IMG/VR virus record: IMGVR_UViG_3300033405_000004
Coordinates: 32,001-96,000 of that record
Direction: 5' to 3' (one strand)
Origin: a virus
DNA: 64,000 bases
The notes below the pieces were generated by a model, which was not told where the DNA came from, ran no database searches, and was given only the letters and a program-made list of their open reading frames with translations. This document shows, in pieces, positions 13,974-55,514 of this stretch (position 1 is the stretch's first letter; the number at the start of each line of letters is the position of its first letter). Made by a program: the position numbers and the translations under genes.

Positions 13974-14525
13974 TCAGCCCCCTTCTAGGTGCGTCAAGAC
14001 GCAGGACAGCGCGTCGGCCACCGCGTAGCAGTCGTCGAGGTCGGGCTCCGTCGCCTTCGTCTTCTTCATTGGCCACCCGGCGAAGTCAGGCCAGGCCTTC
14101 TTCACCGCCGCCAGCACGTCGTCCTTCTCCGCGTCGGGGGCGCCCGCGCTGCCCCGCTTGTTCTCGGCCGGCGAGATGTACCGGGCCGGGACCCCGAGCC
14201 GGTGGAGCGTGACCACCGTCGTGGCGGCGCCGAGCGCCATGCCCTTGATGGCCGCGGCGTCCCTCGCCCCGGCCGACGGGAGCTCCACGATCGCCAGGTC
14301 CGGCTTGTGCGCCCGGACCAGCTTCTCGATCTCGTCGCTTATCCTCACGCAGCGGCGCGCGTCGTCGTCGGATTTGTAAACATCCTTCTTGTCGCGCTGC
14401 TTCTCGGTGAGGCCCTTGGTGTGGAAGCAACTTCCGTGCAGCACCTTGTCGTGCCCGTCGCCGGCGTCGACCACCGCGAAGCCGGGGGCCGCGAACCCGC
14501 TGTCTATGCCTAGGTAAATCGCCAT
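13974..14525 (-). CDS. ruvC: Holliday junction resolvase RuvC-like
   Basis: YLGIDSG, AIVE, K...G...AEKDDV, VADAL. Confidence 0.85.
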   Translation of the reverse strand: MAIYLGIDSGFAAPGFAVVDAGDGHDKVLHGSCFHTKGLTEKQRDKKDVYKSDDDARRCVRISDEIEKLVRAHKPDLAIVELPSAGARDAAAIKGMALGAATTVVTLHRLGVPARYISPAENKRGSAGAPDAEKDDVLAAVKKAWPDFAGWPMKKTKATEPDLDDCYAVADALSCVLTHLEGG

Positions 14526-14599
14526 GCGAGGTCAGAACAGATTTCCTCCCGGCCGCGCCGGCTTTTTTGTTCTTAGTCCACAGCAACCATTTATTCCCA

Positions 14600-23740: not shown

Positions 23741-24495
23741 TGGCCTCCAAGGTCATACGCGGGCTGCTTTCCGAGGCCAGCGTCGTGGGGTTCTACCAGA
23801 CGCTGGGCGAGATCGAGCGGCAGGCGAGGGATGGTGCGGACGCCCTTGAGAAGGGCGACGTGAACGGCGCCATGCTCTGCTTCAACGGCATCCTTGGCAT
23901 GGTTCAGGAGATGCTGGAGCCGACCCCGCGCCGCGAGCGCGTCGGCGTCGGCGAGTCCGAGGAGCTTCACAAGGCCCTTGACGGCGTCATCGCGCGGTGG
24001 AACCAGCGGCAGGAGTTCGAGGTGGCCTACTACGACGACAACACCATCGAGGGCTTCATCTGGCACGACAACTTTTACCCCGCCGCCGACGTCGCCGACC
24101 CGCTCCGCGCGGCGCAGTTCGACGTGCCCGTGCCCCTCCGGCTCAAGTGGCAGGAGATGATCGCCAAGGAGGGGGCGCATGCGCCCCCGTCGGACGCCTA
24201 CCCGCACGTCAGGACCAGGAGCGTCCCGGTTCCGCAGGCCGAGTCGCTGCTCGCCGAGATCCTCGACGTGGAGCGTGACGGGGACCCGACCCAGACCGCC
24301 TCCACCCCCGACATCGAGGTCCAGAACCACGGCTCCATCATCCTGCTCGCCCCCGTCAGCGACGCCGCCGACGAGTGGCTCCGTGAGCACGTCGGCGAGG
24401 ACGCCCAGTGGTTCGGCGGCGCGCTCGCCGTCGAGCGGCGCTACGCCTACGACATCATCTCAGGTGCCATCGAGGATGGCCTCGTCGTCAAATGA
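23740..24495 (+). CDS. Multidomain hypothetical protein (leader MASKVIRGLLSE)
   Basis: TGATG coupling; internal AESLLAEIL linker. Confidence 0.7.
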   Translation: MASKVIRGLLSEASVVGFYQTLGEIERQARDGADALEKGDVNGAMLCFNGILGMVQEMLEPTPRRERVGVGESEELHKALDGVIARWNQRQEFEVAYYDDNTIEGFIWHDNFYPAADVADPLRAAQFDVPVPLRLKWQEMIAKEGAHAPPSDAYPHVRTRSVPVPQAESLLAEILDVERDGDPTQTASTPDIEVQNHGSIILLAPVSDAADEWLREHVGEDAQWFGGALAVERRYAYDIISGAIEDGLVVK

Positions 24496-24746: not shown

Positions 24747-25270
24747 ACATCCCCGACTACGAGTCCTTCGCCTATTTCTTCGAGGCCCCGCCCAGGCTGG
24801 ACGAGATGTACTCCGGCCAGGAGGTCGTCGCCTGGCAGGGCCGCATCGAGCGGCAGCTCATCAAGCACATCGAGGAGTACGAGGCCGCCCGCAACCCCGG
24901 GTACGCCGACAAGCTCCGCGCCTTCCTCCAGACCTGGCGCCAGCACCAGCTCACCGGCTCGCTCAACGTCGAGACCATCGACGCCCTGCTCGCCTCCTGC
25001 GAGGTGCTCGGCGTCGATCCCTGGAAGCTCCAGACCTACTTTTCCAACCTCCGCGACAACCTCCGCCAGCTCAAGGCCTCCGTCGAGCAGCTGCCGGTCG
25101 ACGCCTACAGCGCCGCCCGCGGCTCCGGCGCGCCCCCGTTCGCGGAGCCGCCCCCGCCCTCCGGCGGCGCCCCGGCCGAGGAGCAGCCCGCCGGCGGCGA
25201 GGCCCCTGCGGAGGAAACTCCCGCCGAGGGGGAACCCGCCCCCGCCGCCGCACCACCCCCAGCTGCCTGA
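24743..25270 (+). CDS. Hypothetical protein (MNIPDYE leader)
   Basis: ATGA coupling. Confidence 0.7.
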   Translation: MNIPDYESFAYFFEAPPRLDEMYSGQEVVAWQGRIERQLIKHIEEYEAARNPGYADKLRAFLQTWRQHQLTGSLNVETIDALLASCEVLGVDPWKLQTYFSNLRDNLRQLKASVEQLPVDAYSAARGSGAPPFAEPPPPSGGAPAEEQPAGGEAPAEETPAEGEPAPAAAPPPAA

Positions 25271-25275
25271 ACCCC

Positions 25276-25845
25276 ATGAACTATTCCCGCATCGCCAAGA
25301 CCATCCTCCAGAGCCAGACCAACATGGGCGCCGTGGACGCCTTCGCCATCAAGGGGGCGGTCACCCAGGAGGAGTACTCCGAGGCCCTCGCCCGCGGCTG
25401 GATCGAGGCGCGCGAGGACGGCTGCGTCGGGCTGCCGAGCAGGGCCTCTTGCCTGGACGAGCTGCGCGCCGCCGCGGCCTCTGAGGGTTTCAAGCCCGCC
25501 GAGGTCGACCACGCTCTCGACGTGGACACCTTTGCCTCCTACCCTCGCTTCGTGATGAGGGAGAGCCTCGCCGAGGACGTTGACCCCGGCGTGGGCGACG
25601 AGTGTGTCGTGGCCGAGGGTGGCAAGACCTACACGGCCAGCGTCGCGAGCCGCAACGCGGACGGAACATATAAGTTAAGCTTTTCGGGCGATAAGCCCAC
25701 CAAGGACTCGTTCACCCGCTCGGAGATCCGCGTGACCAAGCCGGTGGCCGTCGCGGCCACGGCGCCCGCCACGCCCCCGCCACCGGCGGCGCCCGTCGTG
25801 CCCGCCGCCTCCCCCGTCGGCCCCGGCCTCGCGGGGCGGGCGTGA
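25276..25845 (+). CDS. Hypothetical protein with possible SH3/Tudor-like C-terminal domain
   Basis: VGDECVV...YTASVASRNADGTYKLSF. Confidence 0.65.
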   Translation: MNYSRIAKTILQSQTNMGAVDAFAIKGAVTQEEYSEALARGWIEAREDGCVGLPSRASCLDELRAAAASEGFKPAEVDHALDVDTFASYPRFVMRESLAEDVDPGVGDECVVAEGGKTYTASVASRNADGTYKLSFSGDKPTKDSFTRSEIRVTKPVAVAATAPATPPPPAAPVVPAASPVGPGLAGRA

Positions 25846-25897
25846 ACCTTTTTGTTTACAACCCCGGAACGGGGGCCTAGGTGGCTCTGGTCTGCGT

Positions 25898-25974
25898 GTC
25901 CTCGTAGCTCAATCTTGGACGAGCGACGGACTCTAAATCCGGGGATGCGGGTTCGACCCCCGCCGAGGGCACCA
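25898..25974 (+). tRNA. Amber suppressor tRNA (anticodon CUA)
   Basis: Acceptor GTCCTCG/CGAGGGC + A-CCA; D arm GCTC/GAGC; anticodon arm (A)CGGA-CT CTA AA-TCCG(G), CTA at 25933-25935; T arm GCGGG-TTCGACC-CCCGC; 77 nt with encoded CCA. Confidence 0.92.
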
Positions 25975-26307
25975 TCACTTCGCGAGCATCGCCGCGTGGC
26001 TGATCGCCCGCTGCGGGCTTCTCATCCGCTGCGCCCCCACCGTGAAGACCGGGTACACGCTCCCGTCCGGCCGCTGCCGGAACTCCGTCTCGATGCCGAG
26101 CTGGGCCAGCAGGGCCTGGGCCTCGTCGCGGTAGACCCGGGCGGTTCGCGCGCTGGTCAGGCCGCCGGCCCGGTCGGCCGTCGCCGCCAGGTCGAGCAGG
26201 CGCTCCGCCCGGTGCGACTCGTCGGGCGCCGCCCGCCGGAGCCAGTCCTTCCATTGGACTTCGAAGTCGTCCTCGAACAACCTCTCCAGGATCTGGCGTG
26301 CCCTCAT
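25975..26307 (-). CDS. Putative capsid-internal protein (leader MRARQILE)
   Basis: TAGTTAC motif upstream; stop abuts the tRNA 3' end. Confidence 0.65.
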   Translation of the reverse strand: MRARQILERLFEDDFEVQWKDWLRRAAPDESHRAERLLDLAATADRAGGLTSARTARVYRDEAQALLAQLGIETEFRQRPDGSVYPVFTVGAQRMRSPQRAISHAAMLAK

Positions 26308-26359
26308 GCCGTAACTACTATCGGTTGACTCCGGGCCGGGGATGCTGTTCTATTGGGGC

Positions 26360-26737
26360 ATGGACGAGTAGGTAGCACCCGGGGACGGTTACCGCCTGTA
26401 CGCGGTCGTGCGCGAGGACCTCGCGATGCCGCCGGGCAAGCTCGCCAGCCAGGTCGGCCACGCCTACCTTGAGGCGTTCCTGCGCGCCGGCCCCGAGCGC
26501 CAGTCCGCCTACCGGGCGGGCGGCATGGGCGTCAAGGTCTGCCTGGGCGCCCCGGGCCTGAACGCCCTCGGGCGCCTCTACGACCGCGCCCTCGCGCTCG
26601 GCCTCCCCTGCTACCTCGTCGAGGACTCTGGCCGGAACACCACGTTCGGCGGCGTCCCCACCGTGTCCGCGCTCGGCGTCGGCCCGCTCACCGCGGGCGA
26701 GGCCGCGTTCCTGCGGCGCCTGCCCCTTCTCCCATGA
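26360..26737 (+). CDS. pth2: Peptidyl-tRNA hydrolase Pth2 with in-frame UAG at codon 4
   Basis: YAVVREDL.MPPGKLASQVGHA...KVCL...VEDSG.....PTVSALGVGP...L.LL. ATG GAC GAG TAG then the frame stays open. Confidence 0.85.
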
Positions 26738-27183
26738 ACACCACCGACACAGCCCAACCCGGGGCGGACACGCCCCTTTCGTTCCACCCGCAGCACGCCC
26801 CGATCGACCTCGCGTTCGCGGCCAGCGTCCCGGCCTACCGGGATTTTGTTTACGAATGGCGGGCGCTCTACCGCTGGCTCAGCGCCACGATCCGCCACGA
26901 CAAGCTGGTGTCGCGCGCCGCCGAGTCGGAGCGGGCCAAGCCCAAGCTCAACGTCAAGCCCGGCCTGCTGCGGGCCCTGGCCGGGAAGTGCAAGCCCGCC
27001 GGCCCGCCGCCCGCGGCCTACGCCGCCACCTGGAGGCTGCCCCATTGGCAGATCCGGTGGAGCGTCAACGACCGCGACCGCTACGGCGACCGGGCGTACG
27101 CCAACTACCTGCTGGCCCTGCGGGCGGACGCGAAGCGCGCGTTCAAGGCGCGTGACGCAGTTCTTACCCCGCATGAGGTTTAA
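26734..27183 (+). CDS. Hypothetical protein
   Basis: ATGA overlap with pth2. Confidence 0.6.
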   Translation: MNTTDTAQPGADTPLSFHPQHAPIDLAFAASVPAYRDFVYEWRALYRWLSATIRHDKLVSRAAESERAKPKLNVKPGLLRALAGKCKPAGPPPAAYAATWRLPHWQIRWSVNDRDRYGDRAYANYLLALRADAKRAFKARDAVLTPHEV

Positions 27184-28120
27184 CAGCCGCGGTGTTGCCG
27201 GCATCGACGACCTGGCGATCCTCGTCGTCGTTGTCGTCGTCGCGTGGGGAGGCCTGACGCTGGGCCGGATTTCCCTGCACAACCCGTTCGCGAAGAAGCC
27301 GCCGGTGGAGCAGGTCAAGCAGATGCAGGACCAAATCGATCAGACCACCAAGGAGCGGGACGCCGCCAAGCAGGACGCCGCCGCCGCCCGCCAGCAGGCC
27401 AAGGACGCCGAGGCTGACGCCAAGGCCGCGGTCAAGCTGCAGATCACTGACATCCAGCAGAATGACCGCGGCGCCCAGGTGTTCCTCGACAAGGTGGCCC
27501 CCGAGCACGTCACCGCCGAGGTCAAGGGCGCCCGTTCGTTTCTCCTGCACAACAACATCCACCTCGTGGCCTTGAACGGCAAGCTGTCGGACGACCTTGA
27601 GGCTCAGGTGCAGCAGCTGGTGGCCGACTGGGAGGCCGGCAAGGAGGCCGAGTTCAACGCGGCGATGGCGGCGAAGGACAAGGTGGTCGACGCCGCCCAC
27701 GCCGCCCAGGTGGTGGCCGAGACCAAGGAGCAGCAGCAGACCCAGCGGGCCGATGACGCCTACAAGCTGGTGGACCAGAAGGACGCTACCATCGCGGACG
27801 AGCGGGTGAAGGAGAAGGGCTACCAGCAGCAGATCTCCGCGTGGATCACCAAGCGGCTGTCGTCTGAGACTCTCGCGGCCGACGCCCAGCACGCGGCCGA
27901 CTTCCTGTTTTGGTGCCTGATCGCCTATATTAGCCTGCACCTGTTTAGCGCATGGGTCGCGCCGGGCTGGCTCTCGCACATGCCGGCATGTGCCCTCAAG
28001 ACCGTGCTGCACAAGGTGACTGGCATCCTCGCCGGGGGCCTGCACTTTATCAAACACGAGCAGACCATCGCCAAGCTGACCGCCGGCGCCGTGACCGTTA
28101 GCTCCGCCGGCACGAAGTGA
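27173..28120 (+). CDS. Membrane-anchored coiled-coil protein (possibly spanin/lysis-related)
   Basis: N-terminal TM, long Q/A/K coiled coil, C-terminal hydrophobic segments. Confidence 0.6.
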   Translation: MRFNSRGVAGIDDLAILVVVVVVAWGGLTLGRISLHNPFAKKPPVEQVKQMQDQIDQTTKERDAAKQDAAAARQQAKDAEADAKAAVKLQITDIQQNDRGAQVFLDKVAPEHVTAEVKGARSFLLHNNIHLVALNGKLSDDLEAQVQQLVADWEAGKEAEFNAAMAAKDKVVDAAHAAQVVAETKEQQQTQRADDAYKLVDQKDATIADERVKEKGYQQQISAWITKRLSSETLAADAQHAADFLFWCLIAYISLHLFSAWVAPGWLSHMPACALKTVLHKVTGILAGGLHFIKHEQTIAKLTAGAVTVSSAGTK

Positions 28121-31365: not shown

Positions 31366-32136
31366 ATGGCTGAGATTTACCAAACTCTCGCCCTGGAGAA
31401 CGCCCTCATCCTAGAGTCGAGGGAGTACATGCTGCGGCAGTTCAACTTCCAGAACGCCGGCAACCCTTGGACCGAGATGCGCATGGGCATGCTCTACGCG
31501 GGCGTCTCGTTGACGAACGACAACGTCAACTCCGCGGCTGAGGACGTCGTCGTCTCCAGCGCCGCCGACCGGATAGCCTTCGGGATAAAGGATTCGGGCG
31601 CGGCGATCCCCGGCACGACTGGCTCGCCTAGCTCGTGCCTCTTCCTGGGGGCCACCACCGCCCTTGACGCGGTCGTGTTCCACGTGCCCAGCTCCTACGT
31701 CAACGTCGAGGGGGGCGGCCAGAACAGCTTTGGTAGCTACGGGGTGGGGGGAAACTTGGCGGCGTGCGGGGCCGTGGACGCCAGCTACATCAGCGGCTAC
31801 AATGCCGAGTACCTCGACCGGATGCTCTTCCCCACGGTGGCCAGCGGCGCCAACAACTACTGCGGGTTCTACGCGCTCAGATTCGTAATCGCCAACCAGG
31901 GGCTGGCCGCGCAGACGGTGACCATATCCGACTCCACCTCCCAGCCCGTCGGGGTGCCGTACACGGTGGCCGCGCTGCGGACCCTGATCAACAACGCGAG
32001 CTACCAGAACGCCCGGGTGATCGCCTGGAACAACGGCTCGACCGCATACGCGATCCCGAACTGCTGGTTCCTGCGGCTCCCGTTCTACAACAACCGCATC
32101 CGCATCTCGGCGCTCGACATGATCATGATCAGCTAG
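31366..32136 (+). CDS. Putative tail/receptor-binding protein, paralog A
   Basis: Thr/Gly/Asn-rich beta-type sequence; shares N- and C-termini with paralog B. Confidence 0.7.
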   Translation: MAEIYQTLALENALILESREYMLRQFNFQNAGNPWTEMRMGMLYAGVSLTNDNVNSAAEDVVVSSAADRIAFGIKDSGAAIPGTTGSPSSCLFLGATTALDAVVFHVPSSYVNVEGGGQNSFGSYGVGGNLAACGAVDASYISGYNAEYLDRMLFPTVASGANNYCGFYALRFVIANQGLAAQTVTISDSTSQPVGVPYTVAALRTLINNASYQNARVIAWNNGSTAYAIPNCWFLRLPFYNNRIRISALDMIMIS

Positions 32137-32139
32137 CCT

Positions 32140-32949
32140 ATGGCCGAGATCTACAACAACACTGTCGAAAACACCCTCATCCTGGCGCCGAGGGAGTACG
32201 TTTCGCGGCCGTTCAGCTTTGGCGCGTCGTGGACGGAGATCCGTATGGGGATGTTCTTTGGTCTGGTTTCCGCAGTTGGCGACAATGTCAACTCCGTTGC
32301 GGAGACCGTGGCCATCGCGAGCGCCGCCGACCGGATAACTTTTGGGATAAAGGACTCTAGCGCGGTGGTCCCCGGCGCGGTGGGCTCCCAGTTTCTCGGC
32401 GCGATCACGAACTACGCTTCGGGCGCCTACGGCTATCCGCCCACCTCGCAGAACGTCGTCGGGGCTGGTTTGAACTGGGTTGGCACCAATTATGCCGCCA
32501 GTGGAAACAACACCCTGTGCGCGGTGGGGGCCAACGGCACGACCCTCGCGACGGCGGCGTCGCAAGCGGCTCCAGGGACGCCGGTGACTTCGGGTTACAG
32601 CACCACGATGGATAACATGTGGTACCCCACGACGATCAGTGGCGTGTCGAGCTACTGCGGGTTCTTCGGGCTCCGGTTCGTCATCGCCAACGCCGGGTTG
32701 GCCACGCAGACGGTTACCATCTGGTATTCGAGCAATGGTCAGCAGGCTGTTGCTGGAAGCAATTATTCGGTGCCTGCGCTGCAGACTTTGCTCAACAACA
32801 CGGCTTGGGGCGGCACTGGTAACACTTGGATCATCCAGTGGAACAACGGCTCGGTCGCCTACTCCATTCCGAGCTATTGGTGGTTGCGGCTCCCACTCTA
32901 CAACAACCGCATCAGAATCTCCGCGATGGAGATCATGAAGATCAGCTAG
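32140..32949 (+). CDS. Putative tail/receptor-binding protein, paralog B
   Basis: MAEIY...WTE.RMGM...LRLP.YNNRIRISA. Confidence 0.7.
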   Translation: MAEIYNNTVENTLILAPREYVSRPFSFGASWTEIRMGMFFGLVSAVGDNVNSVAETVAIASAADRITFGIKDSSAVVPGAVGSQFLGAITNYASGAYGYPPTSQNVVGAGLNWVGTNYAASGNNTLCAVGANGTTLATAASQAAPGTPVTSGYSTTMDNMWYPTTISGVSSYCGFFGLRFVIANAGLATQTVTIWYSSNGQQAVAGSNYSVPALQTLLNNTAWGGTGNTWIIQWNNGSVAYSIPSYWWLRLPLYNNRIRISAMEIMKIS

Positions 32950-34013
32950 TAGCTGAACGTGACCGGGTGGACGGGCTGGTTCGGCGCCGCGGCGGCGCAC
33001 ACGTATGCGACGGGCAGGGCGAAGTTCAGGGCGACGAACAGCCAGAGCGCCCACGCCGGAAGCCGCGTCCGGCTCGCGCCGAGCACCGCCCACGGCAGCA
33101 GAACGGCGATGGATCGGCTGGAGTCCCACGCGAGGAAGTAGACCACCAGCAGGCAGGCCGCGCCGATCGCCATCGCCCACCGGGCCAACGCGCCGCCGAA
33201 GGCGGGGCGCGAGTCCCAAACTATCCAGAGCGTCGGGGCGATCACCAGCCAGCCCGCGCGCCAGCCGTGCCACCAGCCGACGGGGAGCCAAGCCGCGAAG
33301 TTCGCGAAGCAGCCCCCCTGCATCCTGATCTGCTCACCCACGCCGGGGTCCCCGGTGAAGTGGGCGTAGAGGCGCCCCGCGCAATAGGGCAGCGCGCCGA
33401 GGGCGGGCCACAGGCCGCGCGGCCAGCCGCTGCGCCGGTCGACGCCGCGCAGGGCGGCGCAGAGCGGGAGGGCGAGCAGGAACCGCTCGTCGACCCACGG
33501 CCCGAAGAGGCACGCGGCCAGCGCCACGGTCGGCGACGGCGAGAGGCTGAACGCCAGCAGCGGCAGGAGGTACCACGCGTCCATCGCGAAGACCCACGGC
33601 CCGCTCGTCCACGCCGACGAGGTCACGAAGAGGCCCGCCGCCACGGCGATCCGCGCCGGGTCGCGGCTGTCGCGCCAGGCGTAGTGCATGACCGCGAGCA
33701 GCAGGACGATCGAGCCGAGCCACGGCACCCAGAGGTACTGCTGGTCGGAGAGGCCGAGGTCGTGGCAGACGACGGGCACCAGCATGCGCCAGCGCATCGC
33801 GTGGGCGACGCCGGTCTGCATGCAGAAGGCGTAGGCCCGGTCCCAGTGCACCGGGTCGTGCAGCTGGGCCAGCAGGGGCGGCACGCGGATGCCCTCGTGG
33901 TTGATGTCGATTAGGCCGCAGGGCAGCGACTTCGGCGGGTAGCGGTAGAGTGACAGCAGGGCGAGCGCAACGGAGCCCGCCACGGCCAGGGAGAGGCGCA
34001 TGGGTTTCGTCAT
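32946..34013 (-). CDS. Multi-pass membrane protein (GT-C-like candidate)
   Basis: Many hydrophobic segments; own promoter TTTACA-17-CATAAT, 7 nt before ATG 34013. Confidence 0.6.
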   Translation of the reverse strand: MTKPMRLSLAVAGSVALALLSLYRYPPKSLPCGLIDINHEGIRVPPLLAQLHDPVHWDRAYAFCMQTGVAHAMRWRMLVPVVCHDLGLSDQQYLWVPWLGSIVLLLAVMHYAWRDSRDPARIAVAAGLFVTSSAWTSGPWVFAMDAWYLLPLLAFSLSPSPTVALAACLFGPWVDERFLLALPLCAALRGVDRRSGWPRGLWPALGALPYCAGRLYAHFTGDPGVGEQIRMQGGCFANFAAWLPVGWWHGWRAGWLVIAPTLWIVWDSRPAFGGALARWAMAIGAACLLVVYFLAWDSSRSIAVLLPWAVLGASRTRLPAWALWLFVALNFALPVAYVCAAAAPNQPVHPVTFSY

Positions 34014-34119
34014 GGGGCCGATTATGGCCGCCCATGCTGGGGCTGTAAACAAAAATGTTTATGACATTTTGTGGGCAGTGGCGGGCAACAATGCCATTCT
34101 TATCCCATGTAGTTAGGCC

Positions 34120-34497
34120 ATGAGGTTCGACGAGCACGACGAGACGATGCCCGCCGCCCAGGAGCTGGCCCGCAAGGCCCGCGAGCAGGGCTGGGAGGTC
34201 GAGCTGCACCACGACACCATCGACCTGCAGCGAGGCGGCGACTGGATCGACGTGGTCTACGACGACGGCCGCCCGGTCGAGGTCCGGGTGCTCGCCGGCT
34301 CCGTTGGCTTCGAGGGCCTGCTCGCCGTCGTCGAGCGGTCGGTGGACGAGTTCCTGGCGGCCATCGGCGGCGAACGCGCCGAGCTCAGGACGGCCATCGC
34401 GCCGGGCGTCCACGAGGCCATGCGCTGGCTGGCTGACCTGCCCCCGGTCCCGGAGGCCGACGGGATCAAGCCCATCCTCAGGCGGTTGCTCGGCTAG
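34120..34497 (+). CDS. Hypothetical late protein
   Basis: TAGTTAGG upstream. Confidence 0.65.
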   Translation: MRFDEHDETMPAAQELARKAREQGWEVELHHDTIDLQRGGDWIDVVYDDGRPVEVRVLAGSVGFEGLLAVVERSVDEFLAAIGGERAELRTAIAPGVHEAMRWLADLPPVPEADGIKPILRRLLG

Positions 34498-34907
34498 AAC
34501 GGGTCGCCGTCCTCCGGGTTCGGCTCGATCTGCGGCGCGGTGGCCGGCCACCGCTTGCTGTTCGTGTCCTCCGCCGCCCGGCGGGAGTTCTCGGCCACGG
34601 TGAGCAGCCGGATGTTGTCGATGGAGTAGCCGAGCCAGGACTTCACCCGGTCGATGGAGAGGCAGCGGCTGTTCCTGCCGCGGGCCGTGAGGTAGTCGGG
34701 GTGGCTCGCGCAGAAGGCTTTGAACTCCTCCAGGGTGATGGAGAATGGGATGCCCCGCCTCTTCGCGTTGGACCGGAGCTTGTTCAGCGTGTAGCTGGCC
34801 GGCTGGTTGGCCGCCCAGCGGCGGGTCGCGCAGCGGCAGCAGTAGGTGTTCCGCTTCTTCCGGGGCCGGCCGCAGCCGGGCGTCTTGCAGCGTCCAGTTT
34901 TGGGCAC
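34494..34907 (-). CDS. HNH-type endonuclease
   Basis: AKRRGIPFSIT...SIDRVKSWLGYSIDNIRLLTVAEN. Confidence 0.8.
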   Translation of the reverse strand: MPKTGRCKTPGCGRPRKKRNTYCCRCATRRWAANQPASYTLNKLRSNAKRRGIPFSITLEEFKAFCASHPDYLTARGRNSRCLSIDRVKSWLGYSIDNIRLLTVAENSRRAAEDTNSKRWPATAPQIEPNPEDGDPF

Positions 34908-34972
34908 GGAGGCGAAGAACGGATCGCTAGATGTTTACGCCGTCGGTTACAATCCGGTTCTATACTTACGGC

Positions 34973-35371
34973 ATGGCGCTGACACAGGCTGAGAAGGACG
35001 AAATCCAGAGGATGCTCGACGGCTTGCCCTGCAACGAGCACGGGCGCCTGAGCGAGGAGATGAGGTCCGAGCTGATCGGCTATCGGGAGACCATGCAGAC
35101 CCTCGCCAAGGCCATGGAGCGCCTCAGTCTCGTGGTGGTCGGCGACGACGAGCTCAAGATCGTCGGCCTGGGCCAGCGGGTGCAGCAGGTCGAGGGGGCG
35201 CAGAATAAGCTTCGGGAGGACGTGGAGAGGCGGTGGCAGCGGGACGACATCCAGCGCACCAAGATCGTCTTCTTCGTGATCGGGGCGGCTGCCGTGATGA
35301 ACGCCGCCTTCCGCCTCGTGGCATGGGTCGCCGGCCTTCTCGGCCTGGGCGGCATCCCCGGCCTTCATTAG
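34973..35371 (+). CDS. Coiled-coil protein with C-terminal TM (holin-like candidate)
   Basis: TACTTAC motif upstream; C-terminal hydrophobic helix. Confidence 0.55.
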   Translation: MALTQAEKDEIQRMLDGLPCNEHGRLSEEMRSELIGYRETMQTLAKAMERLSLVVVGDDELKIVGLGQRVQQVEGAQNKLREDVERRWQRDDIQRTKIVFFVIGAAAVMNAAFRLVAWVAGLLGLGGIPGLH

Positions 35372-52527: not shown

Positions 52528-52784
52528 GACGCCCCCGCCTAGTTGTTTGTGCCGCCCTCCGCCTTGGCATCCGCATCATCTGCGGGCCACGCCATTACGA
52601 TTCCACCATGCGCCAGCAGATGCTGGAGCCGCGTGCGTGGTGCGTTGCGGAGCAGGGTTTCGTCGACCAGAAGGGCCGGTTCCTTACCCGCGAGCAAGCG
52701 CGCGCCATCGCCGAGAGGCGCGGCCAGATCCGCTACCGCTGCGGCGGCGACGAGAAGAAGCTATTTAGTGACAACCTCTACTGA
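52524..52784 (+). CDS. Conserved phage hypothetical protein
   Basis: VVCAA...GPRH...QGFVDQ.G.FL.RE.A...LFS.NLY. Confidence 0.75.
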   Translation: MRRPRLVVCAALRLGIRIICGPRHYDSTMRQQMLEPRAWCVAEQGFVDQKGRFLTREQARAIAERRGQIRYRCGGDEKKLFSDNLY

Positions 52785-52785
52785 A

Positions 52786-52983
52786 ATGCGCAAGGCAATC
52801 ACAACCCTTTTGAGCGCCCTGTGGGTGGTGGGCTGGGTCTCGGCGGGCCTCGCGACGCTGAACCGCTCCCATCTGTTCAAGGTGCCCCAGCCGGCCCACG
52901 CCTGGTTCGTTGTCATCGTGTTCTGGCTGGCCATCCTGTTCGCCGGCCTGGGCCTCATCCGCGGGGCGATGCGGGAGCGTTAG
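52786..52983 (+). CDS. Small two-TM protein
   Basis: Two hydrophobic helices. Confidence 0.6.
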   Translation: MRKAITTLLSALWVVGWVSAGLATLNRSHLFKVPQPAHAWFVVIVFWLAILFAGLGLIRGAMRER

Positions 52984-55514
52984 GCGACGGTGGCGCTCTT
53001 GATTTCGACGGCGTAGCCCTCCGCCGCGCCGATGGTGGCCCCGGACGCCTGCTGCGTGGTCGTCGTGGCCGTGAAGTAGATGTAGACGTTGCTCAGGACC
53101 GGCGGCAAGCTGCCGTCCAGCGGGTAGGTGGAGAGCGTCGCCGTGATCGTGTAGGCGTCGCCCACCGTCAGGTTGATGCAGGTGACCGTCCAGTCCACGG
53201 TCTGGCTCAGGGTGCCGCCGGCCGGGCCGGGGTTGGCGACGGTGTAGGCCAGGGGCTGGTTGCCGTCCGGCGAGCCGGGGTAGTGGCTCACGGCCGCGAT
53301 GTCCACGATCGTGGGCTCGGTGGCGAACTGGCCGAAGGCCGACGGCACCGCCGAGAAGTCCGCCGTGAAGGGCTGCAGGCCCTGGGACGCGCAGCCGTTG
53401 TCGACGAGGGGCAGGAAGTCCGGGCCGGCCACCACCGCCCCGAAGTCGTTCATCCACGCCTGGAACGTGCGGAGCACGGGCGTGCAGTTTGGGTCCGTGG
53501 CGAGCACCCGGGTGCCCTGGTCGAGCTGGAGGCCCGCCGGCACGAGCGCCAGCCGCCCGACGTCGCCCGGGCCCCCTAGCTGGAACGCCTGGGCGAGCCT
53601 CGTCTCGACGAGGGAGATGGCCCTGAGCCATGCGCCGTTCGCCGCCGCGTCCCACAGGTGGTCCCCCGTGGCCGGGTCCAGCGTGCGGTAGTCCGTGGGC
53701 GGGGTGGTCTGCGTCGCGGCGGCCGAGCGCTGCACGCTCTCCAGGGCGCGCTGCACGAGCAGCTGCTTGTAGGGGTCGTAGGCCAGCGGGTTGGGCAGCG
53801 TCTCGACGGTGTCGAAGACGCGGACGTCGTAGGCGAAGACGTAGAGGCAGATCTGGGTGCCCCCGGACCAGCTGACCGTGAGCGTCGGCTGCGTCAACGC
53901 GGACGTGACGCACACGTCGAACCAGGCCGCGTCGACCCGGCCCGGCACCCCGGCGAGTGTCAGCGGGTACGAGCTGTAGCCGCCCAGGCCGACCTGCACG
54001 GTGTACAGCACCTGCTGCCCGGAGGCCGCCTGGGTGAAGAAGGAGATCTCGTCGAGCGTGAACTGCCCGGCCGCGCCGTCCCAGGTCACGGTGAACAGGC
54101 CCGGGCCGCCGGGCGAGTTCAGCTGGACTAGCTGGCTCGTGACGGGCGTGCCCGCGGGCTGGTTGTAGACCAGCGACCCGTCGAAGACGGCCACGCCGTT
54201 GTAGGCGCAGCTTAGGTTGAAGCTGAGCGTCTGGGCGGTGTCGTCCCGGAAGGTGAGGCTGAAGAAGAGCGTCCCCGCCGGCAGCGGGAACTGCCAGGAG
54301 TGCGTCCCGCCCTGGTAGTAGGTCACGGCCGTGCCGTTGGCCGACCCCTCCAGGTTCTGGAAGCCGAGGATGTCGATGTCCGTCGAAGGCTGGAGCGTCA
54401 GGCCGACCCGCACGCAGGAGGCCGGGATCTGCGCGGGCACGCCGAACGTCGCCGAGCCGGCGACGGGGAGCAGCACCGAGTCGGACTGGTAGAGGCCGCC
54501 GGAGGTGACGAAGTTGTTGGGCAGTGCGGTGAGGAAGAGGGTCCGGTCCTTCCAGGGGCGCACGTTCACCCGGGCGGATTTCTGCCGCCAGTACTCGGCG
54601 TCGAGGTAGCCCGGCACGTCGTAGATGACCGTGACCGTGCTGTTGAACGCGCTGCTGAAGCTCGTGGCCGTCGGGGAGGGCCCGCCCGCGTCGGACAGGT
54701 CCTCGCCGGCCCAGGAGAGCGTCTGGGTCGTCCGGTCGAAGACCAGCTGGAGCCTGCCGGGCACGAGCGGCTGCGCGGCCCAGGTGCGGAAACGCCCGTC
54801 GTCGCTGACCAGGGCGTAGACCTCCGGCTCGGCCGCGTTCGGGCCGGCGACCTGCACCAGCAGCCGGGAGGCGACGGCGTAGACGTTGCCCAGGTTGTTC
54901 ACCGTGGCCGCCACGTAGGCGGCCAGCACGTTGTCCCGCCACGCCAGGAACTGGTCGGTGCTGGAGAAGAGCCCGGGGGCGAGCGGGAGGTTGTAGCCGG
55001 CGTCGACGTTGCCCTGGCTGATGCCGTAGGCGAGCGCCCAGAGGTCGCTCGTCGCCAGGCCGGGGAGCACGTCCGCGGGGAGGGGGTTGTCCGCCAGCTG
55101 CTCGGCGGCCTGCTGGAGGGCCTCGTAGATCAGGAGGTCGCGGGCGTAGAGCTGCTGGTCCGTCGCGGCGGCGTTCACCGGGAGCGACTGGTTGTCCACG
55201 TGGTCCACGGTGCCGGGGAAGCCCACGGTCGGCGGCAGGTCCACGGCGGCGTTCTGCAGCGCCCCCGCCGCGGGGTACGGGAGGGCCGGCCTGGGCGCCC
55301 GGAAGTCCCAGATGTCCGAGGTCTTGAGTGCCACCTGGGCGATGGCCGCCCCGACGAGCAGGTCCCGGTAAGCCAGCTCCCGGTCCCGCCCGGCGTACTG
55401 GCCGACGTCGAGGGCCGCGTCGAACGCCACGGTGCCCAGGGTGGGGCCGGGCGCCACCGCCTTGGCCCAGTCGAGCCGCGGCACCAGCGGGAGGATGTAG
55501 GCGGACTGCAGCAT
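52980..55514 (-). CDS. Large virion structural (tail/baseplate) protein
   Basis: Thr/Gly/Val-rich; end of a late operon. Confidence 0.7.
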   Translation of the reverse strand: MLQSAYILPLVPRLDWAKAVAPGPTLGTVAFDAALDVGQYAGRDRELAYRDLLVGAAIAQVALKTSDIWDFRAPRPALPYPAAGALQNAAVDLPPTVGFPGTVDHVDNQSLPVNAAATDQQLYARDLLIYEALQQAAEQLADNPLPADVLPGLATSDLWALAYGISQGNVDAGYNLPLAPGLFSSTDQFLAWRDNVLAAYVAATVNNLGNVYAVASRLLVQVAGPNAAEPEVYALVSDDGRFRTWAAQPLVPGRLQLVFDRTTQTLSWAGEDLSDAGGPSPTATSFSSAFNSTVTVIYDVPGYLDAEYWRQKSARVNVRPWKDRTLFLTALPNNFVTSGGLYQSDSVLLPVAGSATFGVPAQIPASCVRVGLTLQPSTDIDILGFQNLEGSANGTAVTYYQGGTHSWQFPLPAGTLFFSLTFRDDTAQTLSFNLSCAYNGVAVFDGSLVYNQPAGTPVTSQLVQLNSPGGPGLFTVTWDGAAGQFTLDEISFFTQAASGQQVLYTVQVGLGGYSSYPLTLAGVPGRVDAAWFDVCVTSALTQPTLTVSWSGGTQICLYVFAYDVRVFDTVETLPNPLAYDPYKQLLVQRALESVQRSAAATQTTPPTDYRTLDPATGDHLWDAAANGAWLRAISLVETRLAQAFQLGGPGDVGRLALVPAGLQLDQGTRVLATDPNCTPVLRTFQAWMNDFGAVVAGPDFLPLVDNGCASQGLQPFTADFSAVPSAFGQFATEPTIVDIAAVSHYPGSPDGNQPLAYTVANPGPAGGTLSQTVDWTVTCINLTVGDAYTITATLSTYPLDGSLPPVLSNVYIYFTATTTTQQASGATIGAAEGYAVEIKSATVA

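Follow-up and report, generated by a model that had tools for sequence, protein, structure and literature searches.

In a 64,000-nt stretch of a virus genome (positions 32,001–96,000 of IMG/VR record IMGVR_UViG_3300033405_000004; hereafter the window), a gene for a predicted peptidyl-tRNA hydrolase of the Pth2 family (pth2) carries an in-frame TAG as its fourth codon, and a tRNA gene with a CUA anticodon lies upstream of it on the same strand. Comparison with relatives makes it probable that full-length Pth2 is made only when this phage tRNA(CUA) decodes the UAG at codon 4, so that the TAG would act as a gate on the gene. The source contig, an IMG/VR fragment with an estimated completeness of 69%, is 157 kb long, has a GC content of 68%, and belongs to a large, high-GC phage using the standard genetic code. 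All positions are window coordinates unless marked as genome or locus positions, where L-numbers denote fetched loci. The elements of the gate are the following:

25898–25974, plus strand: amber-suppressor-type tRNA (ARAGORN; Rfam RF00005, 54.3 bits against a cut-off of 29)
26360–26371, plus strand: leader and gate, the four codons ATG GAC GAG TAG, identical in contig L179 and with a layout that recurs in relatives
26360–26737, plus strand: full pth2 frame of 125 codons including the TAG, ending with TGA at 26735–26737 (Pfam, AlphaFold2 [AF2], and Foldseek)
26408–26410, plus strand: GTG (Val17), the first canonical start past the TAG and the start chosen by the open reading frame (ORF) caller; the first beta-strand (beta1) is lost if it is used

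From position 26360 the gene reads ATG GAC GAG TAG GTA GCA CCC GGG GAC GGT TAC CGC CTG TAC GCG GTC GTG, which places the gate TAG at 26369–26371 with a G (from GTA) as the next base. The translated frame matches the PTH2 domain model (PF01981) with a score of 61 bits (cut-off, 23 bits; e value 1.6e-16; profile positions 1–100 of 115; 60.3 bits in a scan of the whole genome), and this match begins at Y11 (26390), 5' of the GTG at 26408. The AF2 model of the full protein has a mean predicted local distance difference test score of 90.9 and the alpha/beta fold of Pth2, its four-stranded sheet being formed by residues 12–18, 58–64, 84–89, and 101–110; residues 1–6, including the position of the TAG, are disordered, and beta1 corresponds to residues 12–18 (26393–26413). 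Foldseek matched this model to archaeal Pth2 and human Bit1 with template modeling scores of 0.77–0.89 (2zv3, 1q7s, 3erj, 1wn2, and 1xty; 117–122 alignment columns). In a profile alignment against the PDB, the conserved Met of the family falls on residue 13 of Methanocaldococcus jannaschii Pth2 (2zv3), PPGK lies opposite GKGK, and (E/I)D(S/T)G opposite RDAG of the same protein. Studies of archaeal Pth2 have assigned catalytic roles to the Lys of the G-K motif and the Asp of D-x-G; in the family alignment K27 is invariant, and the Asp of D-x-G is replaced by Glu in some relatives. Family, fold, and the Lys and Asp positions thus agree in predicting a peptidyl-tRNA hydrolase with the Pth2 fold. 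In the model, initiation at GTG 26408 would remove core strand beta1, and the PDB profile alignment agrees with the claim of an earlier sequence-only reading that the called start cuts off the first strand. That reading had also placed a TAG at codon 4. Rereading of the sequence and an independent assembly both bear this out: contig L179, from another sequencing run, is 100% identical over 25880–26440, TAG included. The identical protein call is present on 10 contigs.

The tRNA at 25898–25974 is the only one that ARAGORN detected in the window. Its CUA anticodon lies within a 7-nt loop (CUCUAAA) that has U33 and a purine at position 37, and it has G1:C72, discriminator A73, and an encoded CCA. 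By cloverleaf, anticodon, and loop it is a predicted nonsense-suppressor tRNA. Its scaffold is shared with the CUA, UUA, and UCA tRNAs that adjoin pth2 in relatives. The closest ordinary phage tRNA to these suppressors is a tRNA-Arg in 40 of 68 cases, which is weak evidence and bears at best on ancestry, not on charging. The distance from the 3' end of the tRNA to the gate TAG is 394 nt, matching the earlier estimate of about 390 nt. A role for this tRNA as an initiator at UAG was also considered and is excluded for the source phage by two features, the G1:C72 pair and an anticodon stem without three G:C pairs in a row.

To place the gate in a comparative context, we drew 110 loci from viral and metagenome collections and added the two closest relatives; the counts cover the 92 distinct loci that share 40% identity or more, which form 34 clusters at 70% identity. 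Going upstream from beta1, the first in-frame stop is TAG in 85 of the 92 loci, TGA in 5, and TAA in 2, and 72 of the 92 have an in-frame ATG no more than 15 codons upstream, the commonest leader being ATG-ACG-TAG. A CUA tRNA is present in the fetched DNA of 60 of the 85 TAG loci, on the same strand and at a median of 45 nt upstream; many TAG loci without a visible CUA tRNA are on short contigs, and in two loci (L005 and L010) the CUA tRNA is farther off on the contig. L180, at 73% identity the closest relative, carries the tRNA together with a leader in which TAG occurs twice, and L184, the second of the two closest relatives examined, has one TAG. An early in-frame TAG in pth2 homologs and a CUA tRNA therefore co-occur, as the sequence-only reading had proposed to check, and the outcome it had named as damaging, a lone mutation in one copy with uninterrupted pth2 genes in relatives, is contradicted by the same counts. 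The homologs are mostly called as proteins of 102–103 aa starting from the internal conserved Met of (A/G)-M-P-P-G-K, so annotation pipelines shorten gated pth2 genes, and these internal starts are themselves a hint that the family is without a normal start. One homolog, P0005, was initially taken as an ungated control and was dropped because a TAG immediately precedes its called GTG start. Distantly related Pth2 genes of XacN1, phiCbK, phiM12, Myrna, and RsoM2USA have ordinary starts, and that of Milchi has a TTG immediately after a TAA; the gate therefore belongs to one Pth2 clade and not to all phage Pth2.

The type of stop follows the anticodon of the adjacent tRNA. In L014 two TAA codons lie in frame, both following TTCACG, together with a UUA tRNA of the same scaffold, and L066 has the leader ATG ACC GCT TGA with a UCA tRNA 26 nt upstream. 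In Agrobacterium phage Atu_ph07 (L142, MF403008.1 198552–198938), ATG ATT GGC GAA CAC TTT TGA precedes the Pth2 frame; the homolog is annotated there as a "hypothetical protein" starting at an internal Met, and the only suppressor tRNA of this phage has a UCA anticodon (PMC6102473). Among the compared loci, no in-frame gate adjoins a tRNA with the wrong anticodon.

Three loci require a +1 shift in place of an in-frame stop, L001 at UAGA and L015 and L088 at UAGG. In L001 (2787–3060) the leader is ATG ACC TCA TAG-A, and the Pth2 frame resumes past the A. The adjacent tRNA keeps the CGG/CCG stem core and has eight unpaired loop bases, AUUCUAAA, which include UCUA, the complement of UAGA; an enlarged loop with UCUA is the usual engineered design for reading UAGA. 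None of the other tRNAs examined on the L001 contig has a CUA anticodon. L015 (2420–2560, with L115) and L088 (230–360), which are diverged from each other, read ATG CAG TAG-G followed by the +1 frame, and the only tRNA of the L015 contig has the loop C-G-CCUA-A with a G at the usual U33 position. The +1 tRNAs of L001 and L015 look derived from tRNA-Arg (UCU or CCU).

By the usual comparative test, the segment after the stop is translated. In the ten codons ahead of the invariant R-x-D-L the amino acids are kept (D-P-T-L-R-L-Y-A-I/V-V) and the codons are free, with six synonymous codons in use for Arg, six for Leu, and four for Ala. No downstream start codon is conserved across the loci, the Val at 26408 being GTG in 37 of 74 and the Leu of R-L-Y-A being TTG in 6 of 77. 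The context of the stop also departs from that of ordinary terminators. Of the 85 gate TAGs, 70 are followed by G, 14 by A, 1 by T, and none by C (purine in 84 of 85), whereas a purine follows only 17 of 42 terminator TAGs of the source phage (Fisher p 3e-14). A passage of PMC6266110 that cites Bossi 1983 states that a purine 3' of UAG favors amber suppression. Directly past the stop, 57 of the 92 loci have GTT or GTA and 2 have GTG, and the source phage has GTA despite third codon positions that are ~94% G or C in this genome. The excess of GTA and GTT and the rarity of GTG would fit selection at the nucleotide level, including avoidance of a start codon that bypasses the gate. The codon before the gate is ACG or ACA in 59 of the 85 TAG loci and GAG in the source phage. 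As a separate observation, the only other tRNA that ARAGORN found on the contig (genome 29760–29851, outside the window) is a 92-nt "tRNA-Thr(CGU)", and ACG, its codon, is the commonest pre-gate codon in relatives, though not the one in the source phage.

Comparison thus shows, at the level of sequence, the architecture of the predicted gate, its conservation, the match of stop and anticodon, translation of the segment past the stop, a context favoring suppression, and a genome that is not recoded as a whole. In the mechanism that we propose, the pth2 mRNA would start at or just ahead of ATG 26360, and ribosomes would make M-D-E and reach the UAG at codon 4. Where release factor 1 wins, the tripeptide would be freed and no Pth2 made, because there is no usable start ahead of beta1. 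Where the tRNA(CUA) decodes the UAG, the complete 125-residue hydrolase would follow; any inserted amino acid should be tolerated because its position lies in the disordered N-terminal tail, and a failed read-through would cost merely a tripeptide. A 149-aa partner encoded by the next, overlapping gene would probably be made by translational coupling. We infer that Pth2 output tracks the activity of a non-standard phage tRNA. The earlier proposal of a suppressor-gated Pth2 stands in part: decoding by the tRNA agrees with the 85 TAG gates and with stops that follow the anticodon, but a shortage of release factor 1 as the trigger fits poorly because of the three +1 loci, and the common factor looks to be a special tRNA. 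The other roles put forward with it (peptidyl-tRNA drop-off from an MDE minigene, a timing switch, and a counter to host defense) are conjecture.

Several observations weigh against this mechanism. The anticodon stem of the tRNA is limited to 4 pairs by an A27/G43 mismatch, and the tRNA does not fold more stably than shuffled sequence (z = -0.44). The tRNA is 394 nt from the gate with an opposite-strand gene in between, differing from most relatives. On sequence alone, translation could also begin at GTG 26408, giving a truncated product, or at a non-canonical codon such as CTG 26396. L056 has its own ATG and is ungated, yet it keeps the CUA tRNA. In L006, L057, L016/L017, L044, and L021 the tRNA ends 11–23 nt before the TAG, and the pyrimidine-rich spacer contains no in-frame start (no ATG, GTG, or TTG). 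Finally, ~22% of the phage's genes end in TAG, and backup stops are not enriched after these terminators; with so many TAG-ended genes lacking backup stops a strong suppressor would be costly, and read-through may be weak.

What such a gate would serve is a separate question, and our answer to it is tentative. The purpose that we favor, while holding it to be rather doubtful, is a feed-forward one, in which the hydrolase would be supplied when, and in proportion as, read-through produces extra stalled or dropped peptidyl-tRNA. Its main rival, which we rate as unlikely, is a negative-feedback loop. In it the substrate of the Pth2-like enzyme, possibly acting with its partner, would be the special tRNA in peptidyl or acylated form, so that a rise in suppressor activity would yield more enzyme and, in turn, less suppression; the result would be a prfB-like homeostat holding a costly suppressor low for the benefit of other targets. 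This would account for the position of the recoding site early in the ORF, as in prfB, for a self-contained cassette that travels together over very different phages, and for how a genome with ~22% TAG-ended genes escapes the harm that unchecked suppression should do; a second internal TAG in the genome, at a conserved Trp codon of a vsr homolog, could be such another target. However, solved Pth2 enzymes are named general peptidyl-tRNA hydrolases, and to our knowledge Pth2 enzymes are not tRNA-specific; the conserved Lys and Asp fit an ordinary hydrolase, and the vsr TAG is lineage-specific, a relative having TGG. With somewhat less than an even chance, the tRNA, pth2, and the 149-aa partner together constitute a mobile, self-contained decoding switch in which any non-standard decoder is the key and the early pth2 site is the lock. 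If true, the switch covers amber, ochre, and opal suppressors as well as readers of UAGA and UAGG, and would be a natural, conserved case of four-base decoding.

It is improbable that Pth2 is instead made without the tRNA, from GTG 26408, CTG 26396, or another non-canonical start or by re-initiation, with the mini-ORF serving as an upstream ORF or a bar-type minigene. GTG 26408 does exist and is chosen by ORF callers, a GTG or TTG stands right or soon past the stop in L034, L180, and L184, TTG occurs at the Leu of RLYA in the 6 loci mentioned earlier, and five relatives have no visible upstream start. Any stop would serve a mini-ORF, yet the stop follows the anticodon and the +1 sites match four-base complements; the codon after the stop is seldom GTG, no downstream start is conserved, and a start at GTG 26408 loses beta1.

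Still less credible is a genome-wide reading of TAG as an amino acid (genetic code 15), under which the TAG in pth2 would be one of hundreds. The genome carries a CUA tRNA, third-position GC stays high past TAG codons, and ORFs are roughly doubled in length when TAG is taken as sense, but this signal is an artifact of antisense frames. With third positions ~94% G or C, only TAG (from sense NNC-TAY) can break the antisense frame whose third codon position coincides with that of the real gene; that frame contains 2.1% TAG versus 0.17% TGA and 0.16% TAA, and the TAG-rich ORFs have a GC content at first positions below that at second positions. A six-frame codon model was trained on 64 long genes read in the standard code. 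By this model, stops with coding upstream number 55 TAG, 142 TGA, and 43 TAA (42, 120, and 29 under a stricter setting), and the coding signal ends at TAG as it does at TGA and TAA, with few stops having coding on both sides. There are 10 such TAGs; eight were examined, and seven are ordinary, comprising five gene junctions with an ATG or GTG 0–2 codons on and two gene ends where a further stop follows no more than one codon away. The eighth lies in the vsr gene; by the codon model, only pth2 and this one gene have an internal TAG. The genome keeps the standard code with no reassignment of TAG, in agreement with the earlier statement that the gate operates without genome-wide recoding. Examples of TAG-only-interrupted "ORFs" antisense to real genes are found at 52543–55371 (plus strand) and 31366–34992 (plus strand), and in high-GC phages this effect could cause automated detectors to report recoding wrongly.

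A pseudogene, a lone nonsense mutation, or an assembly error, as a single TAG in an otherwise intact gene might suggest, is hardly believable given the identical independent assembly L179, the early TAG in 85 of 92 relatives across 34 clusters, and an ORF that is otherwise intact with a high-confidence fold.

The vsr homolog lies outside the window (genome ~118267–118710, minus strand; L181:471-911:-) and matches PF03852 (e value 1.1e-18) and Escherichia coli Vsr (1cw0, e value 2e-24). Its in-frame TAG, at genome position 118488, replaces the conserved Trp of HGCFWH and is followed by C, and a relative with 47% identity has TGG at that Trp. This TAG may be either a recent nonsense mutation, perhaps tolerated through the suppressor, or a second target.

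Our literature searches found no description of a natural suppressor-tRNA gate on Pth2. The Pth2 of jumbo phages has been treated as a ribosome-rescue factor, without mention of a gate (PMC7824862), and the authors of the XacN1 study could identify no target gene for its suppressor tRNAs (PMC5852040). XacN1, with two CUA tRNAs, and Atu_ph07, with one UCA tRNA, resemble the source phage as large standard-code phages that have suppressor tRNAs and Pth2 genes. We can assign a target in Atu_ph07, where the TGA in Pth2 matches the UCA tRNA, whereas the Pth2 of XacN1 itself is of a distant lineage and has an ordinary ATG start. In the stop-recoded code-15 phages (TAG = Gln; crAss-like and Lak phages; bioRxiv 10.1101/2021.08.26.457843, PMC9523058) a phage CUA tRNA likewise decodes in-frame UAG, and expression conditional on the tRNA has been proposed. 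The system described here differs in having the standard code and one small tRNA-linked target with the site at its extreme 5' end, and its cassette also occurs in ochre, opal, and +1 versions.

In prfB, which encodes release factor 2, an early in-frame UGA is passed by a +1 frameshift, and the product itself reads that stop, which closes the loop. The pth2 gene likewise has an early in-frame stop that must be bypassed, so that a recoding site lying from a few to a few tens of codons into the ORF would decide the synthesis of a termination or rescue factor, and L001, L015, and L088 also frameshift. Unlike prfB, which uses no special tRNA, pth2 would depend on a dedicated adjacent tRNA gene as its decoder. 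The bar minigenes of phage lambda are toxic through specific peptidyl-tRNA drop-off when host Pth is limiting. The pth2 leader resembles them as an ORF of two to three codons (ATG-x-x-stop) linked to peptidyl-tRNA hydrolase, in the source phage in the form ATG-GAC-GAG-TAG with GAG as the last sense codon versus ACG or ACA in most relatives, but here the mini-ORF shares its frame with the hydrolase gene and ends in a stop that has a matching suppressor tRNA. Engineered amber gates and four-base-codon tRNAs follow the same logic, an early UAG or UAGA with a cognate suppressor tRNA; the pth2 gates, by contrast, are natural, conserved, and phage-borne. If the proposed mechanism is correct, it would be a natural counterpart of the synthetic tRNA-dependent gene gate, would tie stop read-through during infection to the rescue of ribosomes and the recycling of tRNA, and, through a conserved linked target, would explain the orphan suppressor tRNAs of standard-code phages. 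The system is accessible in cultured phages, Atu_ph07 having the opal version.

Candidate start signals lie ahead of pth2 and elsewhere in the window:

26325–26353, plus strand: promoter-like stretch, TTGACT (26325–26330), a 17-nt spacer, and TTCTAT (26348–26353), from reading of the sequence
14523–14538, minus strand: GTTCT-N8-ATG (motif count, as for the next three)
24312–24327, minus strand: GTTCT-N8-ATG
26347–26362, plus strand: GTTCT-N8-ATG, ahead of pth2
27160–27175, plus strand: GTTCT-N8-ATG

The GTTCT at 26347–26351 begins 13 nt ahead of ATG 26360, and the TTCTAT hexamer ends 6 nt short of the same ATG. Both signals had been picked out in the sequence-only reading, which described the spacing from GTTCT as that seen at other starts and placed TTGACT further upstream; the counts agree, with four copies of GTTCT-N8-ATG in the window versus 0.52 expected and at least three of them at predicted gene starts. 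The motif may be a phage-specific start-proximal or leaderless-promoter signal, and it is plausible that the pth2 mRNA is leaderless, or nearly so, from ATG 26360. Among relatives, 15 of 72 loci have a TATAAT-like box equally far from their ATG, versus a background of 1.4%, and another 15 have a Shine-Dalgarno motif instead. A scan with the sigma-70 consensus called no promoter in 25200–27400. A second in-frame ATG at 26342 lies inside the promoter-like spacer, and initiation from there would still require decoding of the TAG.

Two genes flank pth2 directly:

25975–26307, minus strand: 110-aa gene between the tRNA and pth2 (ORF list; coding by the codon model; called as a gene on other contigs)
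26734–27183, plus strand: 149-aa partner gene overlapping the pth2 stop (ATGA), with homologs after pth2 in relatives

The 110-aa gene has no match in Pfam or the PDB profile search and only a weak PHROG match. Most relatives have the cassette without it, the 3' end of the tRNA lying there at a median distance of 45 nt from the stop. A 189-aa upstream gene gave nothing in Pfam, PHROG, and PDB profile searches, and no homolog of a release factor or SmpB was found in the contig, a fragment that is ~69% complete. The 149-aa partner has no match in Pfam, PHROGs, or the PDB profile search. Its homologs, which include those of L180, L184, L040, L044, and L052, directly follow pth2 in most of the 57 loci that have a downstream ORF of at least 90 aa, frequently with the 4-nt ATGA overlap, and have two conserved helical motifs (F..KE.YL.WR..WK..Y..LS..IR and A..ML..RK..K.EAQRQYLA).

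Further tRNA-like genes, with 8-nt loops, occur within ~1.5 kb of pth2 in L006 (3145–3223), L008 (3862–3941), L020 (2852–2929), L022, L045, L057, and L099, and ARAGORN assigns them the four-base "anticodons" gcaa, gtaa, agta, and taaa. Within the window, the sequence TTTGTTTAC, with one mismatch allowed, occurs in 11 copies versus 1.4 expected (25851, 26845, 21404, 34045, 47700, and other sites). One copy lies 47 nt ahead of the tRNA and another just past a hairpin within the partner gene, and the sequence may be a phage promoter or regulatory box.

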